DNA from: a virus
Lineage: Duplodnaviria > Caudoviricetes
Virus record (IMG/VR): IMGVR_UViG_3300011971_000006
Location: 1 to 31,285 of that record
Length of the DNA stretch: 31,285 bases
Reading direction: 5' to 3' (one strand)
Each line of letters starts with the position of its first letter. Within the stretch, counting starts at the first letter, position 1. The notes under the pieces were generated by a model. That model saw only the letters and a program-made list of their open reading frames with translations, searched no databases and had not been told where the DNA came from. Position numbers and translations under genes: made by a program. Shown here one piece after another: positions 472-31,137 of the stretch.

Positions 472-482
472 GAGGAATAATA

Positions 483-1600: not shown

Positions 1601-1714
1601 TCATAGTATAACTAATATATAAAATATTATACGCACATACATAATTGAATATAGCACTAGGTAGGCTGTAAGCACTTAATAATGTTAAGCGTTAAAGCTA
1701 TTAAAATATAAGAG

Positions 1715-2068
1715 ATGGAGATGTTTAATTATATGATTATTACAAATAAAGTAGAGAAAATGGTTACAGTTGAGGAAACGGTTGCCCTAATGTGCAATAA
1801 ATGCGGAGAACTAATTGAGTTGGAACGCTCGTATACACTGCATAATTTTGATATTAATTTTGGGTTTGGCGCAAATGATAATCAGAACTGGAAATTTGAC
1901 ATGTGTAACACATGCATAACTGAATTGGTTAGTGGATTTAAAGTAGAGCCTGATAAAACAAGTGATGAGGCATCAGATTGGGAATGGCCTACAGATGATT
2001 GGAAACAAGAAGAAGAACCAGTGATAGAACCTAGACCTAACACATTGGAACCATTTAGATACGTTTAA
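1715..2068 (+). CDS. Zn-ribbon hypothetical protein
   Basis: CNKCG...DMCNTC; true start probably ATG 1733 behind GGAG. Confidence 0.7.
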   Translation: MEMFNYMIITNKVEKMVTVEETVALMCNKCGELIELERSYTLHNFDINFGFGANDNQNWKFDMCNTCITELVSGFKVEPDKTSDEASDWEWPTDDWKQEEEPVIEPRPNTLEPFRYV

Positions 2069-2077
2069 TATAAAGGA

Positions 2078-2389
2078 GTGTTAATAATTATGAGAGTAAG
2101 AATTATTGCCAATCATCCAGACGACCCAAAAGGAAGCAGTATAAGTGAGTATATAGGTAAAACTTTTGATGCAGAACAGATGCATGGGACAAAGAATATA
2201 AGTGTTTGTTTTGATATTGATGTCGGTACTATGACAGTTTATCCTGACGAATATGAGGTTGTGGATATAGTTAAAGACTTAGATGAGTTTATCAATAGAA
2301 ATTGTGAGTTTAGTATAGCATCTCAAGAAATAAAGCAGTTTATTCTTGCAAATAGAGTTGGATTGACAAAACTACTAAATAAACAATAG
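2078..2389 (+). CDS. hypothetical protein
   Basis: RBS AAAGGAG, probable start ATG 2090; N-terminus similar to 7144-7323. Confidence 0.7.
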   Translation: MLIIMRVRIIANHPDDPKGSSISEYIGKTFDAEQMHGTKNISVCFDIDVGTMTVYPDEYEVVDIVKDLDEFINRNCEFSIASQEIKQFILANRVGLTKLLNKQ

Positions 2390-2394
2390 TCCCA

Positions 2395-2429
2395 ATTCTG
2401 TAACCCTTACTACAAGAGGGTTACAGAAT
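2395..2429. repeat. 13-bp inverted repeat (arm element before the 2442 site)
   Basis: ATTCTGTAACCCT-TACTACAAG-AGGGTTACAGAAT. Confidence 0.8.
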
Positions 2430-2479
2430 ACATAAATAGCATAAAAGCTACATTTGAAGCTATAGAAAGGAGGTAAAGC

Positions 2480-2698
2480 GTGGTTATTTTACAAACATTA
2501 TTAGGTTTAGTGGTTGTATATTTAATTATTTGTATACTTATGTCTTGTCAAAGTTTTAGTCAAGTAAGGTCGGGAAAAGGATTTGAAAATTTTACATTGG
2601 TATTGGGAGATATTCTTATAATGGCAATAGTAGCATGTATAATTCTATATCTGTCTTATGTGTTCGGGAATATAATTACACAATTAATATTCAAATAA
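2480..2698 (+). CDS. small membrane protein (2 TM)
   Basis: RBS AAAGGAGG, GTG start, two hydrophobic stretches. Confidence 0.7.
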   Translation: MVILQTLLGLVVVYLIICILMSCQSFSQVRSGKGFENFTLVLGDILIMAIVACIILYLSYVFGNIITQLIFK

Positions 2699-2722
2699 AT
2701 AATAAGGAGGAATATAAAATAA

Positions 2723-2890
2723 ATGCAAGTGTTAGAAGTATTAGCTAAAGATTTGTTTAATCAACCAGATTTTAAGGGTTTGAATAGACAAGAAATGTGG
2801 GAGAGGGCAACATTTTTAGGATGGAAGTTCAGCAATGTCAGTGGAAATTTCCATATGAAAGTGATTAAACTTAATACTTCGAAAGAGTAA
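2723..2890 (+). CDS. hypothetical protein (55 aa, not in ORF track)
   Basis: RBS AAGGAGG, MQVLEVLAKDLF...TSKE*. Confidence 0.6.
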   Translation: MQVLEVLAKDLFNQPDFKGLNRQEMWERATFLGWKFSNVSGNFHMKVIKLNTSKE

Positions 2891-2955
2891 TTTCATGGGG
2901 TCATGGGTTTTGTAAAACGTAGTAAATGGAAGCATACGAGAGCATGAGGAAGCTG
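2880..2955 (-). repeat. 76-bp ATGCT-repeat plus site unit, inverted copy
   Basis: Reverse complement CAGCTTCCTCATGCTCTCGTATGCTTCCATTTACTAC...TGAAATTACTCTTTCG aligns without gaps to the copies at 8808, 13025 and 14077. Confidence 0.8.
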
Positions 2956-2997
2956 TATTTATTAGTACAAACTAAATATAATAAAGGAGTGTTATTT

Positions 2998-3699
2998 ATT
3001 AGATACTTTGGTGGCAAAACAAGAACTTGTAAGCAGATTGTAGAGATATTAAATACATATAGAAAAGATGGGCAAGTATTCTTATCACCGTTTGTTGGAG
3101 GTGCATGGGTTGAATCATTATTGAGTAGTCCAAAAGAATGTTACGACAAACATCCATATTTAATAGCAATGTATAAAGAATTACAAAAAGGATGGTTGCC
3201 ACCGACAACATTAACTAAAGAAGAATATGATTACATAAAAAATAACCCAGACGAGAAACCATATTTAACTGGATTTGTAGGTTTTGGTTGTAGCTTTGCA
3301 GGAAAATGGTTTGGTGGATATGCTAAGGATAGTTCAGATAGAAACTATTGCATGAATGCTTACAACTCAATATTAAAGAAGCTTGATAATTTAAAAGATA
3401 CATACTTTGATTGTAAGGATTATCAGCAGATAGAACCAAAAGGATATTTAATTTATTGCGATCCACCATATGAAGGTACTACGCAATATAGCAAGACATT
3501 AGTTGGTGATTTTAATTCAAAGGACTTTTGGGATTTAATGCGTCAATGGTCAATACATAATACAGTAATAATTTCTGAATATAATGCGCCAGAGGATTTC
3601 AAATGTATATGGTCTCAAGAAGTTAAACTAGATATGAGAGATAGCGAGAATAAAAAGAAGGTTAGAGTTGAGAAACTATTTACCATAAATAATATATAA
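2998..3699 (+). CDS. DNA adenine methyltransferase, Dam/D12 family (orphan)
   Basis: RYFGGK, PFVGG (motif I), IYCDPPY (motif IV); probable ATT start at 2998 behind AAAGGAG. Confidence 0.9.
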   Translation: MRYFGGKTRTCKQIVEILNTYRKDGQVFLSPFVGGAWVESLLSSPKECYDKHPYLIAMYKELQKGWLPPTTLTKEEYDYIKNNPDEKPYLTGFVGFGCSFAGKWFGGYAKDSSDRNYCMNAYNSILKKLDNLKDTYFDCKDYQQIEPKGYLIYCDPPYEGTTQYSKTLVGDFNSKDFWDLMRQWSIHNTVIISEYNAPEDFKCIWSQEVKLDMRDSENKKKVRVEKLFTINNI

Positions 3700-3741
3700 T
3701 AATACATACGTTAAAATACAGAATTTAAAGGAGATAAGTAA

Positions 3742-3906
3742 ATGATAGATGAAGAGTTTGTAGTTACTCGTTTAGAATATAGGATTGAATATTTAACTAA
3801 ACAAAAAGAAGTATTAATAGAAAATGAATTAATTACTAATAAATACTGGTCAATTTCAGGAACTATTAGTGGGTTACAAGAAGCATTAGATTTACTAACA
3901 CAATAA
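3742..3906 (+). CDS. hypothetical protein (54 aa, not in ORF track)
   Basis: RBS AAAGGAG; the TAA stop forms the first bases of the 3904 site. Confidence 0.6.
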   Translation: MIDEEFVVTRLEYRIEYLTKQKEVLIENELITNKYWSISGTISGLQEALDLLTQ

Positions 3907-3935
3907 AAGGCGAGTTTGAAAGGGAGGAATAAAAT

Positions 3936-4175
3936 ATGTGTTATGGTTCCAAATGTGATTTTGAAGGATATATGGGAGAATGTAATATACTCTCTGTATC
4001 AAAGTTTAGACAAATAGAAACTGAGTTAGGATATACTGCTTGCTTTATTGGAGGAGCTACAACTGATCCTGAAGAGCATGATTATTTTAATAAGTTGTTT
4101 AGAGAAGGTAAAATACAAGAAATGCTTATTAAAGCCAGTAATATTGTATATAAAAGGGAGGTTTATAAATATTGA
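3936..4175 (+). CDS. hypothetical protein
   Basis: RBS GGGAGG; ORF track. Confidence 0.7.
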   Translation: MCYGSKCDFEGYMGECNILSVSKFRQIETELGYTACFIGGATTDPEEHDYFNKLFREGKIQEMLIKASNIVYKREVYKY

Positions 4176-4357
4176 GAGATCCAAACCGCATTGATGAAAT
4201 TATTGAAGAGTTAAGAATTTGTTGGAAGAAGTATCCTGATTTAAGGCTAGGACAATTAATTTATGTTTTAGTATGTAAGAATACACAGAGCACAGAAGTA
4301 GACGTTTTTAACCCAGAGGATGATGAAATGTTAAAATGGATCAAGGAGGGAATTTAA
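4172..4357 (+). CDS. conserved small phage protein (MRDPNRI...WKKYPDLRLGQL; YihD/DUF1040-like)
   Basis: recognisable family motif; RBS GGGAGG, TTG start. Confidence 0.7.
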   Translation: MRDPNRIDEIIEELRICWKKYPDLRLGQLIYVLVCKNTQSTEVDVFNPEDDEMLKWIKEGI

Positions 4358-4543
4358 ATGGATGAATACTGTGTTTATGATGACTCTAATTGTAAATACT
4401 TAGAAATTTGTAAACAGTACATAGAAGGTGAAGCTTGTATTAAGGATTTACTGGGTACTGATTTGATTTTGTTGCCTCAATATTCGCCTGAAGCTATTCT
4501 GAAAAGGATTAAGAAGAATAGAAATAAACAAGTGTTAAAATAA
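4358..4543 (+). CDS. hypothetical protein
   Basis: RBS AAGGAGG; ORF track. Confidence 0.6.
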   Translation: MDEYCVYDDSNCKYLEICKQYIEGEACIKDLLGTDLILLPQYSPEAILKRIKKNRNKQVLK

Positions 4544-4660
4544 TAATGTAACTACCACACGAAAAATGCATTTCAAGTGGTAATCTAATTATTTTAATCA
4601 TATATAATTATATACATCATATACTTAAATAGGTGAAAGAATTTAAAGGAGGAATATACA

Positions 4661-4933
4661 ATGCAAAAAACATGGGAAGAGTACGAAGAAGAAAAAGAAA
4701 ACAAAGATTACACAGGGTATAGAGCTGAGTTTAAAGGTGATCACGATGGTAAATTAGCATCAAAAGTTATTGGGGATGCTGAAAGACCTGAAGATTGGGA
4801 CGGTTGTAGTTTTGTTGTAGTCGAGGACATGGAAAGTGATATTATTATTGGATTTTATGAATGTGACAATGATAAACGGCTAGGGGATAAACAATTTTAT
4901 GTAGAAAAAGACGATATGTGGTTTGAAGGTTAA
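4661..4933 (+). CDS. hypothetical acidic protein
   Basis: RBS AAAGGAGG. Confidence 0.7.
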   Translation: MQKTWEEYEEEKENKDYTGYRAEFKGDHDGKLASKVIGDAERPEDWDGCSFVVVEDMESDIIIGFYECDNDKRLGDKQFYVEKDDMWFEG

Positions 4934-4934
4934 T

Positions 4935-4962
4935 AATTAGGGGAGTTTATTCTCCTCTAATT
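4935..4962 (+). terminator. hairpin, possible terminator or processing site
   Basis: AATTAGGGGAG-TTTATT-CTCCTCTAATT immediately after a stop codon. Confidence 0.5.
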
Positions 4963-5008
4963 TAGATACATACAAGGAAATTCTGATTTTAAAGGAGAAG
5001 AGAATAAT

Positions 5009-5227
5009 ATGGATTATATAAGCATTGTAGCTATTGTAAAAGATGGAGGATATGAAAAATTACAAATACCATCTAAATTTCTCAGTGAATTGTCATTATT
5101 AATAAAGAAAAATGGTTCTGAGATTGTACAGTTGAAAAACAGATCAATAATTGTAGCTGGAATATTGATAGCAGGTAAAGACATGGGAGAAAGAATTATT
5201 CTTTGTGGAGACTATAAAGATATTTAA
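5009..5227 (+). CDS. hypothetical protein
   Basis: RBS AAAGGAG; ORF track. Confidence 0.6.
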   Translation: MDYISIVAIVKDGGYEKLQIPSKFLSELSLLIKKNGSEIVQLKNRSIIVAGILIAGKDMGERIILCGDYKDI

Positions 5228-5246
5228 CTACATATAAATAATTTTA

Positions 5247-5275
5247 TTGACGTAACCTTTCTACTAGTGTATACT
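5247..5275 (+). promoter_or_regulatory. sigmaA-type promoter upstream of the ligase
   Basis: TTGACG-N17-TATACT. Confidence 0.7.
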
Positions 5276-5322
5276 TATATCAGTGGAGAGGTTGTATTTT
5301 TAATAGAGAAGGAGAGACGAAA

Positions 5323-6606
5323 TTGGAAAAAGTATTGTCAATTGTTCAGCAAATCCAAGCAACCCCAGGACGGAACGATAAAGAGGCTATTCTAAGAGAA
5401 AATGAGGACAATGAATTATTCAAGACAGTAATGCAATTCATCTACGACCCGTTCATTTTGACAGGTATATCAAAAAAGAAGATCAGTAAAAAGCTAAAAC
5501 TTCCAACTGAACCATCTACATTGTCAATTATTGAAGTAATGGATTATCTCAAATTACATAATTCTGGAAAGGATGTTGATGTCACTTTAGTTCAACATTT
5601 TATCCAATCACAACCTGAAACATTGAGAGATTTCCTTACTAAAATCGTTTCTAAGGATCTCAGCATAGGCTTAACGGACGGTACGTTAAACAAAGTATAT
5701 GGCGACTTCATCCAAACTTTTAGCGTAATGTTAGCTAAGAAATTTGAAGACCATAATCATAAAATTAAAGGTGAATTTGTTATTACTGAGAAGTTGGATG
5801 GTAATAGGTGTGTAGTAATTAAAGATAATGGCGTTGTAAAATCGTTTACTAGACAGGGTAAGCAGTATGAGGGTCTGGAAGAAATTGAATCTGATATTGC
5901 AAATCTAGAAGAAGATAATGTTGTTTTTGATGGAGAATTAATTGCAGATATGCAAGGTAGCACAATTCAAATCTATGCGGAGACAACAAGCAAAGCTAGA
6001 AGTAAAGGTTCAAATAAAACAGGGTTAGTGTATCATATTTTTGACATGCTCCCATTAGACGACTTTCAAAATGGAAAATCTAGAACTGATTGTGTTTTTC
6101 GCAAGCTCATGTTAACAACAGTTTTTGAAAATAATGAGTTCCTACATTGCAAAGAAGTCAAACCTCTGTATATAGGAAGTGATTTATCAGAAGTTGAAAA
6201 ATGGATGAGTTGGGCTGGAGCTAATGCGTTAGAAGGGATCATGGTTAATTTAGATAAGCCTTATATTTGTAAGAGAAGTGATTCAATTTTAAAAGTAAAA
6301 GTATTCAATGATGCTGATGTTCGTTGTTTAGATGTTATTATTGGAACAGGAAAGAATGCTAATAAACTTGGTAGTATTACAATTCAATTTGAGCATGAAG
6401 GTAAAGCATATGAATGTAATTGTGGTTCAGGATTCTCGGATCAAGAGCGAGAAGCATACTGGAAGCAACCAGAATTGATTGTGGGTAAGATTGTGACAGT
6501 CGGATACTTTGAAGTCTCTAAGAACGCAACAGGATATTTTGGGTTAAGATTCCCGACATGGAAGTCAATTATTAGACACGATAAAACTGAAATCAGTATG
6601 AATTGA
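5323..6606 (+). CDS. ATP-dependent DNA ligase
   Basis: motif I EKLDGNR, III VFDGEL, IIIa YHIFD, IV EGIMV, V LKVK, OB-fold CGSGF and LRFP. Confidence 0.95.
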   Translation: MEKVLSIVQQIQATPGRNDKEAILRENEDNELFKTVMQFIYDPFILTGISKKKISKKLKLPTEPSTLSIIEVMDYLKLHNSGKDVDVTLVQHFIQSQPETLRDFLTKIVSKDLSIGLTDGTLNKVYGDFIQTFSVMLAKKFEDHNHKIKGEFVITEKLDGNRCVVIKDNGVVKSFTRQGKQYEGLEEIESDIANLEEDNVVFDGELIADMQGSTIQIYAETTSKARSKGSNKTGLVYHIFDMLPLDDFQNGKSRTDCVFRKLMLTTVFENNEFLHCKEVKPLYIGSDLSEVEKWMSWAGANALEGIMVNLDKPYICKRSDSILKVKVFNDADVRCLDVIIGTGKNANKLGSITIQFEHEGKAYECNCGSGFSDQEREAYWKQPELIVGKIVTVGYFEVSKNATGYFGLRFPTWKSIIRHDKTEISMN

Positions 6607-6618
6607 GGAGGAATAATA

Positions 6619-6909
6619 ATGGCAATTAAAATAGGCAGTGTGAGTAGCTTTAGTATGTTTAACAAAGAAACAGGTGAATCTTTGATGGAAATCAAAAATC
6701 CATCAGCTATGTCAAATATAGTATCAAAACCTAATAAGGATGATTTGATTCCATGCAAGATGGAATTCAATGGATGTGAAGAAATCCAGATATATATTAC
6801 TAAAGAAACTTATCAAACTATGATGGATTACAAAAATAAAACCAAAATTGATGAAGAGACAAAAGTTTGGAAACAATCTGGTTATAAAAATAACATGGAA
6901 TGCAATTAG
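6619..6909 (+). CDS. hypothetical protein
   Basis: RBS GAGGAGG. Confidence 0.7.
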   Translation: MAIKIGSVSSFSMFNKETGESLMEIKNPSAMSNIVSKPNKDDLIPCKMEFNGCEEIQIYITKETYQTMMDYKNKTKIDEETKVWKQSGYKNNMECN

Positions 6910-6951
6910 ATTAAAAGACTAATTTGATGCTATAAAAAGGAGGAATTGATT

Positions 6952-7107
6952 ATGTTCAAATTAATTTGTATAAAGTGTGGTAAAGAGGTTTATATACAAG
7001 AACATGAAAAGAAAGGACACTTTGTAGAAAATGGTGTTACTATTTTGCAAACAGTAACAGATGATCTAGAGATAGAATGTGATTGTGGTAATAAAGTGGT
7101 TTTGTAA
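6952..7107 (+). CDS. small Zn-ribbon protein (51 aa, not in ORF track)
   Basis: RBS AAGGAGG; MFKLICIKCG...IECDCGNKVVL*. Confidence 0.7.
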   Translation: MFKLICIKCGKEVYIQEHEKKGHFVENGVTILQTVTDDLEIECDCGNKVVL

Positions 7108-7143
7108 TCCCAAGAAAGGACTATTTGAAAGGATGAAGAAGCA

Positions 7144-7323
7144 ATGAACATTAGAATTATTAAAGACATGTCAGCAGAAAACAATAGTACATTCAAAATT
7201 GATAGATTCATTGGCAAAATATATAATGCAAAAATTTATCCAGATGGCAAAGCAGATGTGGATTTTGGTGATAACGTTGGATTATTATTTATTTTTGAAG
7301 GAGAATATGAAATCGTAGAATAG
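7144..7323 (+). CDS. hypothetical protein (59 aa, not in ORF track)
   Basis: MNIRIIKD...FIGKIYNA...GEYEIVE*; similar to 2090-2389. Confidence 0.65.
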   Translation: MNIRIIKDMSAENNSTFKIDRFIGKIYNAKIYPDGKADVDFGDNVGLLFIFEGEYEIVE

Positions 7324-7376
7324 CACTCGAAATTTTACATTTAACGTATAAAAAATAAAACAAAAGGAGGAAGTTT

Positions 7377-8147
7377 ATGCAATTCCTAAAAGATATCCCA
7401 TTAGATGATATCCTTCAAAACATTAAAGCGTCTTTAGATGATGGGTACGAATTAGAGATATCAATAGATTATAATGAGGAATTAAAGGATTTACCAAAAG
7501 ATAAATTATATAAATTTGAAGAAGTCAAAAATATGGATTACATAAGTTTCATTAGTGAAATATACAATCATTTTAGATCAATTGAAAGGCAAGAACTGTA
7601 TGAGTTTCAGGCAAGGTTAGAAAGAGATGAAGATAATACTAATTTTCATTATAGTCTAACTGCTATGAGGCCATTCAGAGGAGATGCTGGATATAAACGT
7701 GGAGGAGGTTCAGAAACTTTTTCTATGAGAGTATTTTTGACACAAAGGAATTTATTACTGCATCAAATTTATGACTTACACCTTCCAACTATATATGAAG
7801 ATATTGGTACATATTTTATTAAGAATGAGCATCCTTATTATTTAGATAATCTTAAAACTGTGACAGGTCATATCAAAAACACTATATATGAAAATATTAT
7901 AGGCAAAATTATTGAAGACAAATACTATGCTATTGAGCAAAGAGAGATCACACTTGAGGAATTAAAAGAATCTACTATTTTAAATATTAATACTAATAAT
8001 TATGAACTAGTTGATTTTGAGATAACCATTAAAGAAAGTTATGGTAGCTTCTATTTTAGTATCACCAATAAATATTTAGGAGATATTATAAAACTTACGC
8101 AAAGGAAAGAAGTTACAACTGAATATCTTTTAGATATCACAACATGA
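7377..8147 (+). CDS. hypothetical protein
   Basis: RBS AAAGGAGG; 256 aa; TGA stop lies within the 8145 site. Confidence 0.8.
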   Translation: MQFLKDIPLDDILQNIKASLDDGYELEISIDYNEELKDLPKDKLYKFEEVKNMDYISFISEIYNHFRSIERQELYEFQARLERDEDNTNFHYSLTAMRPFRGDAGYKRGGGSETFSMRVFLTQRNLLLHQIYDLHLPTIYEDIGTYFIKNEHPYYLDNLKTVTGHIKNTIYENIIGKIIEDKYYAIEQREITLEELKESTILNINTNNYELVDFEITIKESYGSFYFSITNKYLGDIIKLTQRKEVTTEYLLDITT

Positions 8148-8176
8148 AATTTCGCTTTTATAGGAAAGGAGTAGTT

Positions 8177-8419
8177 ATGAACAAATTTGTAATAGGTATA
8201 GACTTAGCTAGAGAAAACACTGATAATACGTGCTTATGTATGCAATTCCTAAATACTTGTTTAGAAGAAATGAAAGAGCTATGGCAAACTGGTGATGAAT
8301 ACCCACTTCCAGAGTTCAATAAAAAGATAATAGGATTGGATAAAGATAGTCGTTTGATTATATCGTCGATATATGAAAATGATAATCAAGAAGTATTCAT
8401 GAATATGTTGGTACAATAA
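8177..8419 (+). CDS. hypothetical protein
   Basis: RBS AAAGGAG before ATG 8177 (the track start 8144 overlaps the site and is probably wrong). Confidence 0.65.
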   Translation: MNKFVIGIDLARENTDNTCLCMQFLNTCLEEMKELWQTGDEYPLPEFNKKIIGLDKDSRLIISSIYENDNQEVFMNMLVQ

Positions 8420-8454
8420 AAGGAACATTTTAAGCTAGGAAGGAGACAAATAAT

Positions 8455-8802
8455 ATGACAATAGGTGAATTATTAGATACTTTATCGTTTCTACCCAATG
8501 ATATCTACATACAAAATATTAACCTAAAAGAGCATGGTTCTGACAGAGGAAACTACGTAGATTTTTATATTGGTCACTATAGTTCTGAAAACCCTCACAA
8601 TACAGTTAAAGAGTTCAGGGATTTTTTAAAGGATAATGTCATAGGCAAAGAATTTCATGGGTATAAAGGCGAGGAATTCTTGATGGATGAGGACTCAGAA
8701 ATTAGACTTGGTTGGTATGGAGATAGTGGAGAACATTTAGATGGCGTTGTGGTTAATGAAAATGGTGCTAATCTAAAAATACAAAGAACTTTATATTATT
8801 AA
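8455..8802 (+). CDS. hypothetical protein
   Basis: RBS AAGGAG; MTIGELL...P N-terminus. Confidence 0.7.
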   Translation: MTIGELLDTLSFLPNDIYIQNINLKEHGSDRGNYVDFYIGHYSSENPHNTVKEFRDFLKDNVIGKEFHGYKGEEFLMDEDSEIRLGWYGDSGEHLDGVVVNENGANLKIQRTLYY

Positions 8803-8807
8803 AAATA

Positions 8808-8883
8808 CACCTCTGGTATGCTCTAGTATGCTTCCATATGCTCTTGATTGCTAAGGTATAAAACACATGAAATGAATATTTGA
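8808..8883 (+). repeat. 76-bp ATGCT-repeat plus site unit, copy 1
   Basis: CACCTCTGGTATGCTCTAGTATGCTTCCATATGCTC...TGAAATGAATATTTGA. Confidence 0.85.
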
Positions 8884-8898
8884 AGGGAGGAGACAAAC

Positions 8899-9093
8899 AT
8901 GGAGACAAAATCAGACTGTAAAGTTCAAATTGCGGATTATATTTGTGACGAATGCGGTAAGGGAATTATGAAATACAATGACAAGATATATTTTACTTTC
9001 CCTGAACAATATGAACACAAATGTAATAGTTGCGGGCGGGTTAGGGCTTTTCAAGATAAATATCCGAAAATAACTTATACATATATGGACTAA
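8899..9093 (+). CDS. small Zn-ribbon protein
   Basis: CDECGKG...HKCNSCG; RBS GGGAGG. Confidence 0.75.
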   Translation: METKSDCKVQIADYICDECGKGIMKYNDKIYFTFPEQYEHKCNSCGRVRAFQDKYPKITYTYMD

Positions 9094-9123
9094 AATATAG
9101 TATTGACGCTATTAAGAAAGGAA

Positions 9124-9387
9124 ATGAATAAGATGAATGTTAAAGAATTAAAGGAATTACTAGAAAAATTCAACGATGATGACATTGTTATTGTTAGTAA
9201 AGATGGTGAAGGTAATGGTTATTCTCCATTAGCTACCGCAGAAGAGGTTAGTTATGAAGCAGAATGTACATGGTCTGGGTTAGTAGGAATTAGAGAATTA
9301 ACGGATGAGCATATTGATGTAGGATATACAGAGGAAGATTTATTAGAAAATGGTGTCGATGCAATTGTTTTATGGCCTACAAATTAA
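9124..9387 (+). CDS. hypothetical protein
   Basis: MNVKELKELL...SKDGEGNGYSPL; start ATG 9124 or 9133. Confidence 0.7.
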   Translation: MNKMNVKELKELLEKFNDDDIVIVSKDGEGNGYSPLATAEEVSYEAECTWSGLVGIRELTDEHIDVGYTEEDLLENGVDAIVLWPTN

Positions 9388-9535
9388 AACCATCGAAAAC
9401 TAGAATTTATCGGATAGGAGAGTGAATAAATCATTATTACGTATAAAAAATCAAAACAAATTCAAATGATTAAAATATAAAATTATCAATATTATTTTAT
9501 TTCCTATTAGAATTATTTTTATTCCAATATTTAAA

Positions 9536-9979
9536 ATGCTTGATAAATGTAAAACCAAAAAGGAATACTCTTATAAAACAATCATAAAATTAGTCCAGTA
9601 TTGTATTGATTATCATCTAAGTAATGATGAATGTATATATGTGGCTTTGAATAATTATGTTGGAGAAGAATGTAGCGATAACGGGATATATAGCTATAGT
9701 AGTTTGTGTGACCTATATTGGAGCTATACTGGACAATCTAAGAGAGTAAAAAATAAAATATCACATGTTTACCATTATCAAAAAGATGAATATATTAAAG
9801 CAGTAAAAGAATTATGTGGGAACCCATTGTCGGACGAAGAAAAGAAACAAGAGTTTACAAAAACAATGAGTGATGGAGAAACATATTTAGCCTATATATA
9901 TTATAGAATTCAAGATAAGGAAATTTGTAAAATTAATAATACTAATAAGGAGGAGGAAAATAATAATGAAAAGATTTAA
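9536..9979 (+). CDS. hypothetical protein, probably 5'-truncated by a frameshift or stop near 9467-9475
   Basis: no RBS at 9536; frame open upstream to a TGA at 9467; RBS AGGAG at 9416. Confidence 0.6.
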   Translation: MLDKCKTKKEYSYKTIIKLVQYCIDYHLSNDECIYVALNNYVGEECSDNGIYSYSSLCDLYWSYTGQSKRVKNKISHVYHYQKDEYIKAVKELCGNPLSDEEKKQEFTKTMSDGETYLAYIYYRIQDKEICKINNTNKEEENNNEKI

Positions 9980-10283
9980 AACAACGGTAACTAGGACTGA
10001 TGAATACATAATTGAGGTTGATGAAACTATTATAAATGAAGAATGGATGCAACACTTTAGACGATATTTCTATGACTTTGACTCACTAGAAGAACATGCA
10101 GAGCATTTATCACAAAGTAGAGCAAGATTTGAACAAAGCTTTTTTGAGGGTTATGGAGAAGTTTTAATTAATAGTAAAAAGTCTTGGAATGTGAAAGATG
10201 AGAATGAAATTGAAAAGGGAATTAATATCATTGTTAAGAGTGAAGACCATGATTGTGAAGTTGAAGTGGAGGAACTTTTATAA
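9966..10283 (+). CDS. hypothetical protein
   Basis: RBS AAGGAGG. Confidence 0.75.
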   Translation: MKRFKTTVTRTDEYIIEVDETIINEEWMQHFRRYFYDFDSLEEHAEHLSQSRARFEQSFFEGYGEVLINSKKSWNVKDENEIEKGINIIVKSEDHDCEVEVEELL

Positions 10284-10759
10284 TGATCAATAAAGAGTTT
10301 TTACAAGCAATAAACCCTAAAGAAAAACCATACAACCCAAAATATTCAGAAGGTACATATACATTCTTACATAGAAACAGAAATAAAGATGTTAAAGTTT
10401 ACTGGAAGAAGAAAGATAATATTAATGGAGATATTGTAAGTTTTGACCCAAGTGATATACGCTCACCGCAAATATACTTTATGTATAGAGAAAATGGTGA
10501 TTGGTTTGGAGTATCATGGTATAGGATTATGAGCAATAAATATAAGGTATTAGATTATTCGAGTTTTGAAATGGATGGATTTGACGATATTACTGAGTGG
10601 TTTTGTAATGAGTATATTAGAGTTGGAAGATGTTTATTTGATTCAAATCATATAAATTTCTTGCTTGGTGAAAATAATGATTATGTAGGTGAGCATAATA
10701 GATTTGAAATTATTGATGGAGTAAAAAGTTGTAGATGGTGTGGGAAGGAGATTAAATAA
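10283..10759 (+). CDS. hypothetical protein
   Basis: TAATG coupling; C-terminal CRWCG. Confidence 0.75.
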   Translation: MINKEFLQAINPKEKPYNPKYSEGTYTFLHRNRNKDVKVYWKKKDNINGDIVSFDPSDIRSPQIYFMYRENGDWFGVSWYRIMSNKYKVLDYSSFEMDGFDDITEWFCNEYIRVGRCLFDSNHINFLLGENNDYVGEHNRFEIIDGVKSCRWCGKEIK

Positions 10760-11266
10760 ATGGAAAGATATTTTGAGGTAACTGGTCAATCAGATTTGTA
10801 TAATGAGTATATGGAGTACAAAAACAATCTAAAAGTAATAGATAATATTTCAACAGAGTTTATGAGTGCTCAAGGAATTGAAACTGATGGATATGCAAAT
10901 CAAGGTGATACTTTTTACATAGAACCTACTGAAAATGACTTAGAGAAGTTTGGCAAGTCATTATGTAAACCTTTGAGCAATGATTTAAGAGCATTTAAAG
11001 TTAGTTCGAAAATAGGGAAAGCATGGGTTAAAAATCTTGAAGAGAAACAAGTACAAATTATAAGTAAACCATTCGTAGGATTTAGTTTTAAAAATTGCAT
11101 GGGGAAAAATCGCTCAAGAATATTTGCTATAGACAATAGTGTTTATTGCTCATTCAGTAATGAATATGATTTTGATGATACTCCCGATGGGTTTATTAAG
11201 ATTAAAGCAAGTGAATTTTATAAGATTATTGAAGATCATAATGCTAAAGTTAAAGGGGAGGAATAA
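10760..11266 (+). CDS. hypothetical protein
   Basis: RBS AAGGAG; ORF track. Confidence 0.75.
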   Translation: MERYFEVTGQSDLYNEYMEYKNNLKVIDNISTEFMSAQGIETDGYANQGDTFYIEPTENDLEKFGKSLCKPLSNDLRAFKVSSKIGKAWVKNLEEKQVQIISKPFVGFSFKNCMGKNRSRIFAIDNSVYCSFSNEYDFDDTPDGFIKIKASEFYKIIEDHNAKVKGEE

Positions 11267-11268
11267 TA

Positions 11269-11501
11269 ATGAATGTTAAATATATTAAAGAGTCGTTTTA
11301 GAAGTTGAAAGTGAAGGAGTATGGACAGAAGATGCAATAGTTTTTAAGACTGGTAGCAATTATGATGTTACAGAAGGACAAACAGGTTTACAAACAACTG
11401 ATGATAGTGGAGAGTGGCACTGGTTATCAGGCACAAGTGATTTTAAAAATGTAGAAGATATGGAATGGTTTCTTGAACATTTCGAAATCCTAGCAAAATG
11501 A
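11269..11501 (+). pseudogene. frameshifted small gene
   Basis: RBS GGGGAGG plus ATG gives MNVKYIKESF*; the shifted frame continues RVVLEVESEGVWTEDAIVFKTG...WFLEHFEILAK*. Confidence 0.6.
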
Positions 11502-11609
11502 TCTTTTAATTGCCAAAACAATATGTGCAAAACTTAATTTTATATAAAAAGTTTTGTAAGCACAGCAAATTAACCTTTTAAAGGGTAATAAGAAAGGAGA
11601 GGATTTGTA

Positions 11610-12470
11610 ATAAAACGTCAAGACTTAACTGGCAAGGTTATTGGTAATTTAACCGTCATAGAAGAAACAAGAAATAAAAGAGGCGAGAGATCTTGGCTAT
11701 GTCAATGTGATTGCGAGAATAAAACACAGATGTTAGTAGATAGGTATAGGCTTGAAAAGGGTTTAAAAACTCATTGTGGATGTAGGAGGAAATATAACCT
11801 CCAGAAAGAAAAAGATTTCCCGCATGAGTACATAGGTAAGTCAAAAACTTGCACATCATGCGGAGAGGAACATCCTTATACTGATTATTATTTCAAAGAA
11901 ACAGTCGATATAAATGGCATAAAGCAATATTTATTTAACGCAATGTGTATAGACTGTTACATAAAACGTGGGAGTAAATATACTAAAGAACATCCAGAAA
12001 TGAATAGGGAAAGTAGTAGGAAAACTGATAAAACTCCTAAAATGCAAGCATATCATAAAGAAGCTATTAAAAATTTAAGAGAAGAAGGTTATTTCTTAGG
12101 ATATTATGCAGATAACCCAGAAAAATACATAAAATACAGAGAAGATCATGATGCACATAAAAAACACACTATTAGTATAAAAGATTGGAACGATTGCAAA
12201 GAGTTTTTTGGATATAAGTGTGCATACTGCGGAATAACTGAAACAGAACATAAAGAGAGATATGGTCAACAACTACAAAAGGATCATGCAGAGAATCAAG
12301 GAGATAACGGGATTGGCAATTGTGTTCCAGCTTGCAGGTCATGTAACAGTGTCAAAAAGAAAAATGATTGGGACAATTGGTTCACACCTGAAAACTCAAG
12401 ATATAGTCAAGACAAATATAATATAATAAGCAAGTGGTTAAATAGTTTTAATAACACTATAAGTAACTGA
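11610..12470 (+). CDS. HNH endonuclease
   Basis: C-terminal CAYCG...QKDH...GNCVPACRSCNSVK; N-terminal DLTGKVIGNLTV...WLCQCDC...HCGC in frame from ATA 11610 behind AAAGGAGAGG. Confidence 0.85.
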   Translation: MKRQDLTGKVIGNLTVIEETRNKRGERSWLCQCDCENKTQMLVDRYRLEKGLKTHCGCRRKYNLQKEKDFPHEYIGKSKTCTSCGEEHPYTDYYFKETVDINGIKQYLFNAMCIDCYIKRGSKYTKEHPEMNRESSRKTDKTPKMQAYHKEAIKNLREEGYFLGYYADNPEKYIKYREDHDAHKKHTISIKDWNDCKEFFGYKCAYCGITETEHKERYGQQLQKDHAENQGDNGIGNCVPACRSCNSVKKKNDWDNWFTPENSRYSQDKYNIISKWLNSFNNTISN

Positions 12471-12494
12471 TTTTATGCTATGGAAGGAGAATAA

Positions 12495-12707
12495 ATGACA
12501 AGATATATACTTAAAATATATTGCCCATATTGTGAAACTAGGTTTGAAAAAGAGTATTCTCTTCCATTAAATAATGATGATATTGAATGTATTTCGTGTG
12601 GATCATTTACTGGACAAGAAATAGTAAGCATAAAAGAGATTAATTATTGTACTTGTGGTAAATGTACTGGACTGCCAGATTACTATAAAGATGATGAGGG
12701 TATATAA
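12495..12707 (+). CDS. small Cys-rich Zn-ribbon protein
   Basis: CPYC, CISCG, CTCGKC; RBS AAGGAG. Confidence 0.7.
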   Translation: MTRYILKIYCPYCETRFEKEYSLPLNNDDIECISCGSFTGQEIVSIKEINYCTCGKCTGLPDYYKDDEGI

Positions 12708-12748
12708 AAAGAGAATTTGATCGTATTAAGAAAGAAGGAAAACAATAA

Positions 12749-13024
12749 ATGATTTTTAAAGACGAAGATAATATTATTTTTAAATTTGGGACAGGTGATA
12801 TCAATATGAATAGTGGGTCGATTGAAGTAGATGGGCAAAAACTAGGAATTATTACATATAATAATCAAAGTCCAAGATCAATAGGCAAAAACCCTGATAC
12901 TGGTCAGTACCCACTGGAAGTTAATTTATATGATTTTCCTGCTTTTATGACATTTTCTAAAGTTGAAAGCATTGATTCTTTAATTTTGTCATTGGAGTGT
13001 GCCAAGGTAGAAATGTTAAAATAA
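12749..13024 (+). CDS. hypothetical protein
   Basis: ORF track; RBS AAGGA. Confidence 0.7.
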   Translation: MIFKDEDNIIFKFGTGDINMNSGSIEVDGQKLGIITYNNQSPRSIGKNPDTGQYPLEVNLYDFPAFMTFSKVESIDSLILSLECAKVEMLK

Positions 13025-13100
13025 CACCTCCTTCATGCTACTGTATGCTTCCATATACTCTGTTTTCCAACGGCATAACTACGATAAAACATAATTTTGA
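13025..13100 (+). repeat. 76-bp ATGCT-repeat plus site unit, copy 2
   Basis: CACCTCCTTCATGCTACTGTATGCTTCCATATACTC...TAAAACATAATTTTGA. Confidence 0.85.
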
Positions 13101-13123
13101 AAGGGTTAGGAGGATGGAAACAA

Positions 13124-13294
13124 TTGAAAAATTGTGTTGTAAGAACTTATGGCAGAGGATATTCTAGTCCTACGGAGAATTTATCAAAGAAGCTAAGTGA
13201 TGGATGGACTGTAAAGAGTAGTACCCCAATTTTAAACAGAGATGGTAAAACAGAGTACGTTGAATATATTCTAGAAAAAGAAAATAAAGTTTGA
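13124..13294 (+). CDS. hypothetical protein
   Basis: RBS AGGAGG before TTG 13124; L.DGW.V...EYILEK pattern. Confidence 0.65.
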   Translation: MKNCVVRTYGRGYSSPTENLSKKLSDGWTVKSSTPILNRDGKTEYVEYILEKENKV

Positions 13295-13319
13295 CTTAAT
13301 AGTATAACTAATATATAAT
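13291..13319 (+). promoter_or_regulatory. sigmaA-type promoter
   Basis: TTGACT-N17-TATAAT. Confidence 0.75.
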
Positions 13320-13381
13320 ATAGATATACATAAGAGTTCATGCATTGAAAGATTATTTTCTAAGGAAAGGAGGATTGGGTT

Positions 13382-13537
13382 ATGGAGGATATGTACAATG
13401 TCACTGAAGTTATTGCAGATTGTTTCTCAGGATTACAAACAAATGAGGAAATTGAGTCAAGAGCAGCAAAAATGATTAAATTTATTATGCAACAAAAAGA
13501 AATGTGTAAAAAGTATCTAGAAGCTGGAATTTTGTAA
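13382..13537 (+). CDS. hypothetical protein (51 aa, not in ORF track)
   Basis: RBS AAAGGAGG; MEDMYNVTEV...LEAGIL*. Confidence 0.65.
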   Translation: MEDMYNVTEVIADCFSGLQTNEEIESRAAKMIKFIMQQKEMCKKYLEAGIL

Positions 13538-13543
13538 AAATAG

Positions 13544-13591
13544 ATACTATATATGGTAGTGATAGCACTAATTAAACACTACATATAGTGA
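13544..13591. promoter_or_regulatory. tandem NrdR-box-like palindromes
   Basis: ATACTATATATGGTAG (13544) and ACACTACATATAGTGA (13576), 32 bp apart. Confidence 0.5.
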
Positions 13592-13644
13592 CCGAATGAA
13601 AGTTTCATTTTATCCTACAAAAACAAATAAAAAGGAGATAGACA

Positions 13645-14070
13645 ATGGAAATTAACATTAAAGACTATTTAAGCGAAGACGAAATTAAAGATATTGTCAA
13701 AGGTGAATTGAGAAGCAAAGTAGCAAGTATATTTTCGAATGAATCAGAGACAGTAAGAATTATAGGGAATATGAGTTATCACTTTATTTGGGAATGCGTT
13801 GACAAAGAGATTGGTGGGAACCTAGAAAATAAAATTAAAGAAAAGGTTATTGAAGTGCTTAGTGGGTTAACTGAATTCTCCTTGTTTAGAAGGAAAGACG
13901 CATGGGAGAAACAAGAATCCATTGGTCAGAAGATATTAGACCAAGCTATATCAGATAATTCTAGTATCATACATAATCAAGTGAAAACATATCTAGAAAA
14001 CTTGGATGAAGATAATTATGTATTTGAACAGGCGGTTAGGGAAGCAATCACACAAAAGATATTAAGTTAA
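13645..14070 (+). CDS. hypothetical protein
   Basis: RBS AAAGGAG. Confidence 0.75.
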   Translation: MEINIKDYLSEDEIKDIVKGELRSKVASIFSNESETVRIIGNMSYHFIWECVDKEIGGNLENKIKEKVIEVLSGLTEFSLFRRKDAWEKQESIGQKILDQAISDNSSIIHNQVKTYLENLDEDNYVFEQAVREAITQKILS

Positions 14071-14076
14071 AAATAT

Positions 14077-14152
14077 CACCTTCCAAATGCTCCCGTTTAC
14101 TCCCATATGCTCCGTTTTTCTAGCACAAAATACCGTTAAAACGATTATTTTA
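14077..14152 (+). repeat. 76-bp ATGCT-repeat plus site unit, copy 3
   Basis: CACCTTCCAAATGCTCCCGTTTACTCCCATATGCTC...TAAAACGATTATTTTA. Confidence 0.8.
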
Positions 14153-14177
14153 ATCTATAAATAGAAAGGAAGATAAT

Positions 14178-14589
14178 ATGTTAATTGAAACTAAATATAA
14201 TTTTGGAGATTTAGTATATCCAATAACCACGAGATTTGAAACACTACAGATACCTACAAATTGTCCTGCTTGTAATGACAAAGGGAAAGTTGAATTGAAT
14301 GACAAACAATATACTTGCCCTAAGTGTAATGGTCATACATATCATAATGAAGAAGGAGACATTGAATACTATGTCTATTATAAATCAGGGAAAGTTGGAA
14401 AATTAGATATAAGATTTATATGCCCCAAATAATAAAAGTTATAAATCTGAATTACGATACATGCTAGATTCTACTGGAGTAGGGAGTGGGTCATGTTGGG
14501 AAGAAGATAATCTATTCCCATCGAAAGAAGAAGCACAAACTGAATGTGATAAGAGGAATATTGCAAGGAAATTGACCATAGCAAATTAA
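14178..14589 (+). pseudogene. frameshifted Zn-finger phage gene
   Basis: CPACNDKG/CPKCNG; a shift near 14416 continues YAPNNKSYKSELRYMLDSTGVGSGSCWEEDNLFPSKEEAQTECDKRN...AN*. Confidence 0.65.
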
Positions 14590-14636
14590 GAATTGATGTG
14601 GAAATAAAATAATAATGTGAAAGAAGGTTATAAATA

Positions 14637-15011
14637 ATGAGTAATTATAATAAAGGCGATATGGTTCAAGTGGTTGATGGTAGTTATTCTTTGACAATTA
14701 AAGATGGAGATTTCTGTCGCTCATATGGAATAGATTTAATGAATAGAGATTTTGAAGTATTACATACAGATTTAAAGTTGCCAGCATCATCAAGTGATGA
14801 TCAATTCAATACCATGATTATCAAAGCAAAAGATAATAACCAAATTGTATATACTCAAGAACGAATGGTGATTCCAAGTGAGAAAATTATCGAACCTGTT
14901 ATCATAAATTTTCATATCACTACATCATCGAACTATAATGCAGAACAATTTGCAAAAACTATTGCAGAATATCTAAAGAACAATAATTATAAGTATAATA
15001 TGGGAATTTGA
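14637..15011 (+). CDS. hypothetical protein
   Basis: ORF track; RBS GAAGGT. Confidence 0.7.
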   Translation: MSNYNKGDMVQVVDGSYSLTIKDGDFCRSYGIDLMNRDFEVLHTDLKLPASSSDDQFNTMIIKAKDNNQIVYTQERMVIPSEKIIEPVIINFHITTSSNYNAEQFAKTIAEYLKNNNYKYNMGI

Positions 15012-15054
15012 ATACCCGTAAAAAAGAAGTTTCATGCTGAAAGGAGATTAAATA

Positions 15055-15342
15055 ATGAGTATTGACAGTGACACAATCAAACAATTTGAGGATATACTTG
15101 AACATAAGCGTAGCAAAGATCCAATACAAATGGAATGGAATAGAGTGACGGAAGAAATTTACCCATATAAGAAGATTTATAGCGTCTTTAAGTTAGGTCA
15201 AGCAACTATACTATCAATGTTTAAAAATAATGTGTATCAATATATGTGCAATGACGATAAGGACTATATTGATGCAATTATTAAATCACAAGACGACGAT
15301 ATTGAGATGAAAGAAATGCTAGATAAATTGATTACGGAATAG
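15055..15342 (+). CDS. hypothetical protein
   Basis: RBS AAAGGAG. Confidence 0.7.
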   Translation: MSIDSDTIKQFEDILEHKRSKDPIQMEWNRVTEEIYPYKKIYSVFKLGQATILSMFKNNVYQYMCNDDKDYIDAIIKSQDDDIEMKEMLDKLITE

Positions 15343-15353
15343 GAGATAATTAA

Positions 15354-15554
15354 ATGACAGAAATTAAAAGTGAATCAGTATTTCTAGATGGTGGAAAATA
15401 TGAAGTTGTCTTTGATCAATCTGGTTATTCTACTGAATTTTATGCTTTGAGATATGGTGAGAAATGGAGAAGTCTTACAGGAGATAATTTAGTTTTGTGT
15501 TTGTTCCAAAGAATTCAAGACTTAGAAGATAAATTGTATACTAGTATTAAATAA
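15354..15554 (+). CDS. hypothetical protein
   Basis: RBS AGGAG; ALRYGEKWRSLTGDNL. Confidence 0.7.
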   Translation: MTEIKSESVFLDGGKYEVVFDQSGYSTEFYALRYGEKWRSLTGDNLVLCLFQRIQDLEDKLYTSIK

Positions 15555-15568
15555 AGGAGGAATATATA

Positions 15569-15793: not shown

Positions 15794-15820
15794 TATACTA
15801 CATATAAATAAAATATATCC

Positions 15821-15849: not shown

Positions 15850-15896
15850 ATACATATGGGGTTAGGAAATAAATATTTAAAGAAAGGAAGTTGCTT

Positions 15897-17176: not shown

Positions 17177-18277
17177 ATGGCTTTTAAGAAAAATGTAATC
17201 AAGGTAGATTTGTGCTCCTATCCACCATATGTAATCATGGGTGAACCTAAGAGTGGTAAATCAACACTATTTCGTGATTTAGTCCTACATAACTATGGTA
17301 AAGAAGAATCTGGATTGCTTATCTCTTTTAAAGATGAAGATGGTTATTTAGCATTAGATAGACTACAGTTTGAAAAAACTATTGAGTGGAATTCAGATGA
17401 AGATGAAGAAACTGGATTACGTGGATTCGTTCAAATTGTAGATGATCTTGTAGAGAATAAAAAGGATTATGAGATTAAAATGGTTGCATTTGATACCTAT
17501 GATAAGCTAGTTGAAATGGCTATTACAGAAGTATTGAAACAACATAAAAAAGAAAAAGGAACACCATGTAAATCAATTAATGATGCATTAGGTGGATATG
17601 GTAAAGGTAGAGATTATCTCCTTGAGATTATTCTTAAACAAATTGGAAGACTCAGAGGAGCAGGTTATGCAATCTTTATCTTAGCTCATACTAAGTTCAA
17701 AGAAAAGACTGATCCACTAACAGGAGATACATATGAACAATTAACAAATAATCTTCGAGCTGATTATTACAATGCTATTGCTAATATTGCTCAAATGATT
17801 ACAAATATTACAGTTGAACGAGAAGTCAAGGAAGGTAAACAAGTAGGAGAGAAACGAGTAATTTACTTTAGGTCAAATGGTATTGTTGATGCTGGAGGAA
17901 GATTTGCAAACTTGCCAGAAAAACTTCCTCTGTCTGCTGAACACTTTATGGATGCATTTAATATTGGTGTGAAGAGTTCTTTTCTAGGTGGAGTATCTGA
18001 TAAGGTTATTGAAACTCAGAAGAAAGTTGAAGTCAAAGAAATTGCTAGTGCAGCAGATGTTGCATGGAAGAAAGAACAAGCAGAGATTCAACAAGAACTA
18101 GCACATGATGATGTTGCAGAGTATGTAACTATTATTCAAGCAAAATTCCCTAAAGCAAAAGATGACGTTAAAGAAACTATTCGAGGAATTATGTCTGAGT
18201 ATAATATCGCTAACTTTAAAACTCCAGAAGAACTCTCGCCTGAAGGATTAAAGAAGATCGTAGAAGCCCTCGCTTAA
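17177..18277 (+). CDS. AAA-family NTP-binding protein (AAA_24/Sak4-like, SPbeta YorG-like)
   Basis: Walker A GEPKSGKST, Walker B VAFDT, GGYGKG, ILAH. Confidence 0.8.
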   Translation: MAFKKNVIKVDLCSYPPYVIMGEPKSGKSTLFRDLVLHNYGKEESGLLISFKDEDGYLALDRLQFEKTIEWNSDEDEETGLRGFVQIVDDLVENKKDYEIKMVAFDTYDKLVEMAITEVLKQHKKEKGTPCKSINDALGGYGKGRDYLLEIILKQIGRLRGAGYAIFILAHTKFKEKTDPLTGDTYEQLTNNLRADYYNAIANIAQMITNITVEREVKEGKQVGEKRVIYFRSNGIVDAGGRFANLPEKLPLSAEHFMDAFNIGVKSSFLGGVSDKVIETQKKVEVKEIASAADVAWKKEQAEIQQELAHDDVAEYVTIIQAKFPKAKDDVKETIRGIMSEYNIANFKTPEELSPEGLKKIVEALA

Positions 18278-26668: not shown

Positions 26669-26718
26669 CTTGTAGTAAGGGTTTCAAAAACACAAAACCA
26701 CTTGAAAAACAAATTTTA
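26669..26718 (+). repeat. AGGGTT arm plus 16-bp site
   Basis: CTTGTAGTAAGGGTTTCA, then TGAAAAACAAATTTTA at 26703. Confidence 0.7.
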
Positions 26719-30635: not shown

Positions 30636-31124
30636 ATGGAAACTATCTATTTTGCTAAAGTAAATCCTAGTGTAATTATTCCATCAAAGAATGTTGAGAA
30701 TGCAGGGTATGATGTATATGCTAACTTTGAGGAAGATTATATTGAAATTCAACCACATTCAACAATGATGATTCCTACTGGGATTGCAAGTGCATGTTCT
30801 CCTGATTTTTACTTTCAATTACAAGAGAGAGGTAGTACAGGGACAAAAGGAATCGCTCAAAGATGTGGAGTAATTGACTCTGGTTATCGCAATGAATGGT
30901 TTGTTCCTTTAACAAATACAACAAATAAAAGATTATTTATTTATAAGGAAACATTTCATTTTTTCAAAAATGATAATATAATCCTTTATCCATATGCTAA
31001 AGCAATTGCTCAGGTAGTATTACTTCCAGTTCCTAAAACAGAAGTTATTGAAAAAAGTTATGAGGAATTGAAGCTAATTACATCAGAAAGAGGAATGAAT
31101 TGTCTTGGTAGCACCAACAAATAA
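30636..31124 (+). CDS. dut: trimeric dUTPase
   Basis: AGYD, IPTGI, ERGSTG, GVIDSGYR, AIAQ, RGMNCLGST. Confidence 0.92.
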   Translation: METIYFAKVNPSVIIPSKNVENAGYDVYANFEEDYIEIQPHSTMMIPTGIASACSPDFYFQLQERGSTGTKGIAQRCGVIDSGYRNEWFVPLTNTTNKRLFIYKETFHFFKNDNIILYPYAKAIAQVVLLPVPKTEVIEKSYEELKLITSERGMNCLGSTNK

Positions 31125-31137
31125 AACGAAAATTTTA
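31122..31137 (+). repeat. 16-bp site overlapping the dut stop codon
   Basis: TAAAACGAAAATTTTA, followed by an RBS. Confidence 0.7.

Follow-up and report, generated by a model that had tools for sequence, protein, structure and literature searches.

What is the role of the short, near-palindromic sites that recur between the small accessory genes of a phage genome? The question is raised by IMGVR_UViG_3300011971_000006, an IMG/VR record whose entire 31,285 nt form the window analysed here. A sequence-only reading of this record had described an integron-like array at 2442..15034, in which some 22 copies of a 16-bp site, YRAAA-N6-WTTNA, separate co-oriented genes, and had proposed that these genes are captured, excised and shuffled at the sites. 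To judge from comparison with related phages, the sites are probably crossover joints matched by their six central bases (the core), through which a tyrosine recombinase would exchange blocks between related phage genomes.

All 22 sites are found where they had been reported, on the plus strand: 2442..2457 (core GCTACA), 2880..2895 (GAGTAA), 3712..3727 (TACAGA), 3904..3919 (GGCGAG), 4560..4575 (AATGCA), 4976..4991 (TTCTGA), 6912..6927 (GACTAA), 7113..7128 (GGACTA), 7328..7343 (TTTTAC), 8145..8160 (TTTCGC), 8417..8432 (GGAACA), 8868..8883 (TGAATA), 9091..9106 (TATAGT), 9394..9409 (ACTAGA), 11494..11509 (TGATCT), 12460..12475 (AACTGA), 12705..12720 (AGAGAA), 13085..13100 (CATAAT), 13346..13361 (GATTAT), 13597..13612 (GTTTCA), 14137..14152 (CGATTA) and 15019..15034 (AAGAAG). 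The written consensus fits 18 of them, those at 4976, 7113, 12460 and 13346 deviating; at 12460 the left arm is decayed, and its counterpart in the relative G002 is intact. The site at 11494 is doubtful, lying 228 bp from the nearest gene end, without a ribosome-binding site (RBS) and with a core not found in the relatives compared. The sites in the proposed range are thus real, but two more lie beyond it, also on the plus strand: 26703..26718 (AACAAA), behind the DNA polymerase gene, and 31122..31137 (CGAAAA), which overlaps the stop codon of the dUTPase gene. Together these give 24 cores.

The sites are enriched at gene boundaries over a shuffled background. Over the whole window and both strands, YRAAA-N6-WTTNA has 34 matches against 18.8 ± 5.1 expected, a number reached in none of 100 shuffles. 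In the gene junctions of the array (2,659 bp), 18 matches are found, whereas 1,000 shuffles average 1.1 and never exceed 8. Spacer lengths of 3 to 9 give 2, 1, 2, 18, 4, 0 and 0 matches in these junctions, so that only a spacer of six is enriched. A listed site is present in 22 of 31 array junctions and in 1 of 19 junctions outside the array. As the sequence-only reading had observed, the sites at 3904, 8145, 8417, 9091 and 12705 begin with the three bases of a stop codon, and between 6912 and 9394 there are seven units with one open reading frame (ORF) apiece. Its further statement that sites stand just ahead of the next RBS does not extend to 2880 and 4560, which have none directly behind, or to 11494. 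Promoter-like matches number four in 1-16100, one of them near a site, and most sites have no promoter nearby.

The site itself is longer than the 16 bp first described. Across 95 sites from the window's phage family, a mirrored bias extends six bases beyond the outer edge of each 5-bp arm (giving an arm of approximately ATMCNW-YRAAA), with the MC of the left outer arm present in 35% of the sites and 6% of controls, and the mirrored GK in 52% and 7%, respectively. The full site is 28 bp, arranged 11-6-11 with mirrored arms. Sites of the SPbeta group have a different mirrored outer arm (approximately TCTRRA-TAAAA) and those of a gut-phage group have the arms WGAAA/TTTCW; arm sequence varies by lineage, and the spacer is constant at six. 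An apparent excess of 5-bp spacers in some gut phages was set aside, being absent at the gene boundaries of G009, the one whole genome of that group examined. Each arm fits the consensus independently of the other, mirror-position identity within a site being equal to that between sites, and this absence of co-variation argues against a hairpin; an Rfam search returned no match. In two site-poor phages, LC76P1 and PMBT69, gene boundaries carry AAGT-N9-ACTT (8 versus 1.2) and TATA-N7-TATA (32 versus 6.4), interrupted palindromes that could be other site types or promoters.

Eleven relatives were compared, of which G004 largely duplicates G002 and was excluded from pair counts. In G002, 12 of the 24 window cores recur exactly and without any change of order (null of 2,000: average 0.65, highest 5), and with relaxed arms 15 of 24 are common to both genomes, again all in order (null 1.0). 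Clearly homologous flanking sequence lies within 40 bp at only two of the 12. When up to two mismatches are allowed in collinear matches, 12 are exact, one has a single mismatch and none has two. The core is identical at 77 of 78 bases in these 13 pairs, although this identity is partly by construction, orthologous site pairs having been located through their cores; agreement at the variable right-arm base is 6 of 13, with 5.2 expected from background, and immediately beyond the site it is again near background. Four-fold degenerate sites in eight genes common with G002 are 54-85% identical. The idea that recombination tolerates non-identical cores, as with Tn916 or integrons, is therefore mostly unsupported.

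Core order is stable as well. It is kept by 84 of 88 shared cores in the window's phage family, 597 of 597 in ten Bacillus SPbeta-like phages and 34 of 35 in the gut-phage group, the genome pairs behind these counts being non-independent. Reordering of cassettes, as originally envisaged, does not agree with this fixed order. One relative, G005 (L292-L297), is close by its replication genes, yet has few, decayed sites and few cores in common with the family.

This pattern bears on the alternative that a phage regulator, such as the MrpR/YopR repressor, uses the sites as its operators and that they have no role in recombination. A symmetric dyad near RBSs would suit an operator, and in the three closest relatives searched (G001-G003) an MrpR-family gene lies upstream of the part that corresponds to the window; MrpR is itself a recombinase-fold DNA binder (PMC10516654). 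However, operators predict arms better conserved than the spacer, and the reverse is found: the free spacer is more conserved than the consensus arms, which disfavours this alternative. The mapped MrpR targets comprise 9 peaks with a 15-bp motif (PMC10516654), as opposed to 32 boundary sites in SPbeta, and most sites in the window have no promoter beside them. Nor do the sites co-occur with MrpR in the manner of SPBRE/MrpR operators: site-poor Sundance has a member of the family, and none was found in G012-14, G023, G026 and MT835469, which are rich in sites. An operator function alone is thus very unlikely, and MrpR/YopR was rejected as the acting protein because its distribution does not follow the sites.

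While cores persist, the genes beside them change. Homology to G003 ends exactly with the site at 4560 and homology to G002 with that at 8417, and a further homology end coincides with the final core base of 2442. There, G002 carries some 580 bp of inserted sequence between two half-good sites of the same core, the window's good left arm standing at one edge and a good right arm at the other; both junctions also occur as loose contig ends in run X1, a possible source of the window. The core at 13597 is common to three relatives with different flanks. Pairs among the ten Bacillus genomes were anchored by one flank without use of the core. Of 51 cases anchored on the left, one first differs inside the core and 42 first differ at positions 12-30; of 36 anchored on the right, none first differs inside the core and 20 do so at positions -6 to 2. 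The core is thus the place of first difference in one of 87 cases, most of them differing first at the variable arm base or within 14 bp past the site. One core is found with all four combinations of left and right flanks, only 15 bp being identical across the four genomes. Because same-order cores are kept while adjoining genes are replaced, the sites are likely matched crossover points. At a larger scale, 26721-31285 is 99.4% identical to G002, beginning 3 bp past the site at 26703, and the preceding block is 81% identical; by this step in identity, the segment reads as a recent large exchange, with its breakpoint at or adjoining that site.

Recombination junctions between accessory genes therefore survive from the sequence-only reading, supported by the changing flanks of relatives, but the free shuffling that it borrowed from integrons and Tn916 is for the most part unsupported. 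An integron-like array, in which gene plus site would form a mobile cassette reinserted at any site, is suggested by the single ORF with its RBS in each unit, by the scarcity of promoters and by the duplicated core around the 2442 insert. Cassettes that carry their site and change order are, however, not what the cores record. The gene at 13118 has a 92% identical counterpart that in G028 occupies another slot, ahead of the same core, and only the coding sequence is homologous; genes thus enter slots without their sites, unlike integron cassettes. The arms show none of the co-variation that an attC-like single-strand fold would leave, and no integron integrase was noted in G001, a relative that is 92% complete and in which only YomM and an MrpR-like gene were seen, no IntI-specific model being applied. 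Contig joints listed from the contigs of one study include none that is backward, a result uninformative on circles. We regard the mobile-cassette arrangement as highly improbable.

A 62-bp repeat module, E1, provides the evidence for a third alternative. It is made of 10-bp repeats and is fixed beside four window sites: at 2896..2957 on the minus strand, to the right of site 2880 and pointing at it, and on the plus strand at 8806..8867, 13023..13084 and 14075..14136, directly left of sites 8868, 13085 and 14137. Twenty copies were aligned from the window's family and IMG/VR, 19 of them in one register with invariant bases every 10 bp; the module has an A-tract at its far end and lies at one fixed distance from the site, beside many different cores. 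In G030, where the 8806 copy is absent, the homologue of gene 8455 leads directly into the core TGAATA. The window has 67 bp extra exactly at the arm/core boundary: a left-hand stretch of six new bases, then the module body and finally a new arm, with the target core kept on the right. This boundary is where a tyrosine recombinase is expected to cut, and a junction without core match is typical of Tn916-type insertion. This copy is the one observation that does agree with core-independent insertion, in line with the tolerance of unlike cores to which the sequence-only reading referred.

The sites could accordingly be the preferred targets and footprints of a Tn916-like element that needs no core matching, with E1 as its internally deleted remnant and flanks replaced through one-ended or imprecise excision. 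Both the 67-bp insertion and the fixed placement of E1 beside different cores are in keeping with such an element, since 10-bp-phased repeats resemble arm-type or excisionase sites, and small tyrosine recombinase genes occur inside the arrays of some relatives. Yet core-independent events should overwrite cores, whereas 15 of 24 persist in order in G002. E1 was not found in the SPbeta, G012-14 or G023/G011 groups, all of which bear sites; it had no match in the plasmids or named phages searched, and a narrow search found no integrase gene within 2.5 kb of six IMG/VR matches. A Tn916-like origin of the array is thus unlikely. E1 may be a platform for an accessory protein or the remnant of an integrative element.

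Other conserved stretches adjoin sites. A second module, E2, containing a CCCTT..AAGGG-type palindrome, occurs at 26650-26702 and 2397-2425, ahead of the sites at 26703 and 2442; in relatives, E2 of the 26703 type recurs beside three different cores with unchanged spacing. In SPbeta and phi3T, a conserved 70-bp stretch lies beside a site close to the left end of the record (approximately 2644 and 1748, respectively, minus strand) and recurs with three different cores in four Bacillus phages.

How, then, would core-matched joints work? One symmetric recombinase would bind both arms, and strand exchange would require a matching core, so that the partner of a site would be its equivalent in a resident prophage or a co-infecting phage rather than a neighbouring site. 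A single crossover would swap a genome arm; two would replace a block, as in the formation and resolution of pdif cointegrates. New genes may first enter a slot by joins at the RBS or stop codon, or by capture at a poor half-site, and could then spread through the joints.

The enzyme has to be sought outside the window, which encodes no recombinase, as had been noted. The search elsewhere produced a candidate in a relative, G001 (154 kb), though one that tracks the sites imperfectly. In G001, one intact-looking tyrosine recombinase was found, its gene lying in the interval from the tail genes to the tape measure gene. It is 52% identical to SPbeta YomM, and of 14 long protein pairs linking the two phages only one is better conserved. 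Among 84 YomM homologues, R191, K222, H293, H320 and Y330 are invariant. The model of G001 YomM (pLDDT 91) has a recombinase fold and over residues 38-348 is about equally similar to XerA, IntI, Tn1549 Int and XerH (Z 18.5-19.1). All 19 site-rich genomes with a hit carry such a recombinase, 16 in the YomM clade and three in a distant clade (G014, G026 and G030), in a FastTree phylogeny whose deep branches are unresolved; G001, a Staphylococcus phage and BcoS-136 were counted as site-rich with only modest enrichment. The distant-clade copies lie at the same tail locus, a statement that does not include the gene neighbours of G026. Eleven genomes show neither array nor YomM, but they represent few lineages, a sensitive profile was used for G009 only, and the quick search used for the others missed SPbeta yomM. 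At best, the distribution suits a YomM that is necessary but not sufficient for the sites. If the rest of the proposal holds, a YomM-type tail-locus recombinase is a plausible candidate for the acting enzyme, though we stop short of calling it probable. The more specific proposal that in SPbeta-like phages, SPbeta included, YomM recombines dozens of 28-bp sites slot by slot, each one solely with the matching-core site of a related genome, and that E1 makes a site a capture point for new DNA in the window's lineage, is tentative and somewhat doubtful.

Other candidates were set aside. A second SPbeta recombinase clade, presumably YopP to go by gene position, is present in site-poor Sundance, LC76P1 and PMBT69 and was not found in G001, G011 or G012-14. 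The small in-array recombinases were not found in G001 or SPbeta and are present in site-poor gut phages. Clustering by BLASTP, which is insensitive to remote homologues and lumps all recombinases together, revealed no family present in all of eight site-rich genomes and in none of seven site-poor ones. No consistent conserved site adjoins yomM.

Several observations weigh against core-matched exchange by such an enzyme. Besides the part that site location plays in the core identity reported above, repeated cores number zero per genome against approximately 0.01-1.0 expected, which is not rarer than chance and too few to test; the single core duplicate found (Goe11 and Goe14) is a 33-bp tandem repeat. 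The E1 junction at 8806 lacks a core match, in the single clean comparison with G030. In the YomM clade, Lys296 replaces the second catalytic Arg. A tail-locus recombinase without an array occurs in Sundance, LC76P1, PMBT69, G018, G019 and G020, and the recombinases of G014, G026 and G030 belong to the distant clade. The YomM-type gene of G013 (118218-119316) is split into two overlapping ORFs, yet 29 sites are kept, and no YomM match was found in G029, which is 85% complete and weakly enriched in sites. The window does not include the tail region, and its own YomM is therefore out of view. Many breakpoints in the Bacillus set lie 2-14 bp beyond the site rather than at the core edge. Of 19 cores with variation on both sides, only one occurs in all four flank combinations. 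Ends of homology blocks in the window are no commoner at site junctions (29 at 22) than at site-less ones (16 at 9).

Breakpoints of this kind belong to the case for a fourth alternative, in which the palindrome has another job, as a protein site or translation signal, and blocks are exchanged by Sak4/SSB-driven homologous recombination within 12-25 bp of shared sequence at the site and RBS, in the way of PeSL cassettes, or by chance joins followed by selection that keeps the site. The window encodes Sak4, a probable single-stranded DNA-binding protein (SSB) and an exonuclease; several bases past the site are often common, breakpoints scatter up to 14 bp beyond it, and block ends are equally common where there is no site. 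On the other hand, identity often extends over no more than the inner 12-16 bp, arm bases being different, and site-poor relatives such as Sundance also encode a Sak4-like protein. Simple retention by descent fails to account for 99% core identity at 54-85% neutral identity. Homologous recombination or chance joining at sites of other function is on balance improbable.

Exchange at core-matched joints can be compared with several known systems. The pdif/dif modules of Acinetobacter share the 28-bp, 11-6-11 geometry (PMC13141974), and single modules are replaced between matched spacers in association with XerC/XerD, a mechanism that has been demonstrated for pdif sites (PMC13141974 and PMC6449649). 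Exchange between identical spacers would be common to both, the support in the present phages being comparative. The arms of pdif are distinct XerC and XerD boxes, whereas the arms here share one consensus (a comparison made without the host's own dif), and pdif modules alternate and invert, whereas array genes here are co-oriented and of fixed order, a phage genome holding 20-50 sites. Their symmetric arms, in which no XerC/XerD boxes were seen, place the sites outside the dif-module family. The inner site resembles difH/XerH of Helicobacter and Campylobacter, in which a single recombinase acts at a 6-bp centre with an A4 tract on either side and the A tract is needed for recombination (PMC3325230). 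However, difH is one chromosomal site with a constant centre, devoted to FtsK-dependent dimer resolution, and its outer arms differ from those described here. Heterospecific lox and FRT sites, used in recombinase-mediated cassette exchange, likewise combine symmetric arms with a spacer that picks the partner, and two unlike sites exchange a block; they are engineered, with 8-bp spacers and 13-bp arms, and unlike the present sites do not form a natural ordered array.

The likeness to integron attC/attI sites and Tn916 coupling sequences lies in promoterless single genes between sites, and the E1 insertion resembles a Tn916 coupling-sequence junction; here, in contrast, order is unshuffled and cores are conserved, and the array has neither a foldable attC nor an integrase beside it. 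The PeSL cassettes of T4-type phages are also repeated intergenic elements bounding swapped genes, in hyperplastic regions of the phage genome, but they are promoter and stem-loop cassettes that recombine mutually and form minicircles (PMC2839356), whereas each site here has its own core and no stem-loop. A promoter and stem-loop per site was not found in 1-16100, in view of the promoter count and the arms without co-variation given above. Best supported overall is a pdif-like system of matched-spacer exchange that would not be a member of the pdif family.

The window is part of a large SPbeta-like phage with 31% GC. Its host is probably a member of the Clostridiaceae, a relative with 84% identity in the probable SSB having been found in a Clostridiaceae genome bin. 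The array of small co-oriented genes, which includes a Dam-type methylase and an ATP-dependent DNA ligase (5323..6606, plus strand) that is a conserved anchor within it, is followed by replication genes: the probable SSB (a label taken from a relative's annotation), the Sak4-like single-strand annealing protein (17177..18277, plus strand) invoked above for homologous recombination, DnaB, primase, exonuclease, Pol III alpha, ribonucleotide reductase and dUTPase. The ribonucleotide reductase gene (27412-30606) contains an intein with a LAGLIDADG domain. Similar AT-rich stretches at 5225-5290, 26512-26580 and 15795-15855 precede sigma-A-like -35 boxes and are common to relatives; they are possible operators of an MrpR-like repressor. 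Near-complete G001 has ParA-like and other partition genes together with a conjugation-like block, so labelled by impression, at 59786-62121 and 63815-68038, and may be a plasmid prophage.

No description of the sites was found in the literature searched, most subscription journals and supplements being outside its coverage, and no paper was found on yomM together with SPbeta; one search returned the MrpR papers only. The exchange of single, unrelated genes between phages at exact gene boundaries has long called for an explanation, and the usual one is rare chance joining followed by selection. If core-matched exchange is true, these phages would swap accessory genes slot by slot without scrambling them, using a built-in mechanism for gene exchange at exact boundaries, and yomM, a conserved gene for which no paper was found, would gain a function. 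A short-arm recombinase with many orthogonal 6-bp cores would also be a useful tool for cassette exchange, and the ordered, core-addressed joints would be accessible in SPbeta and phi3T of B. subtilis.

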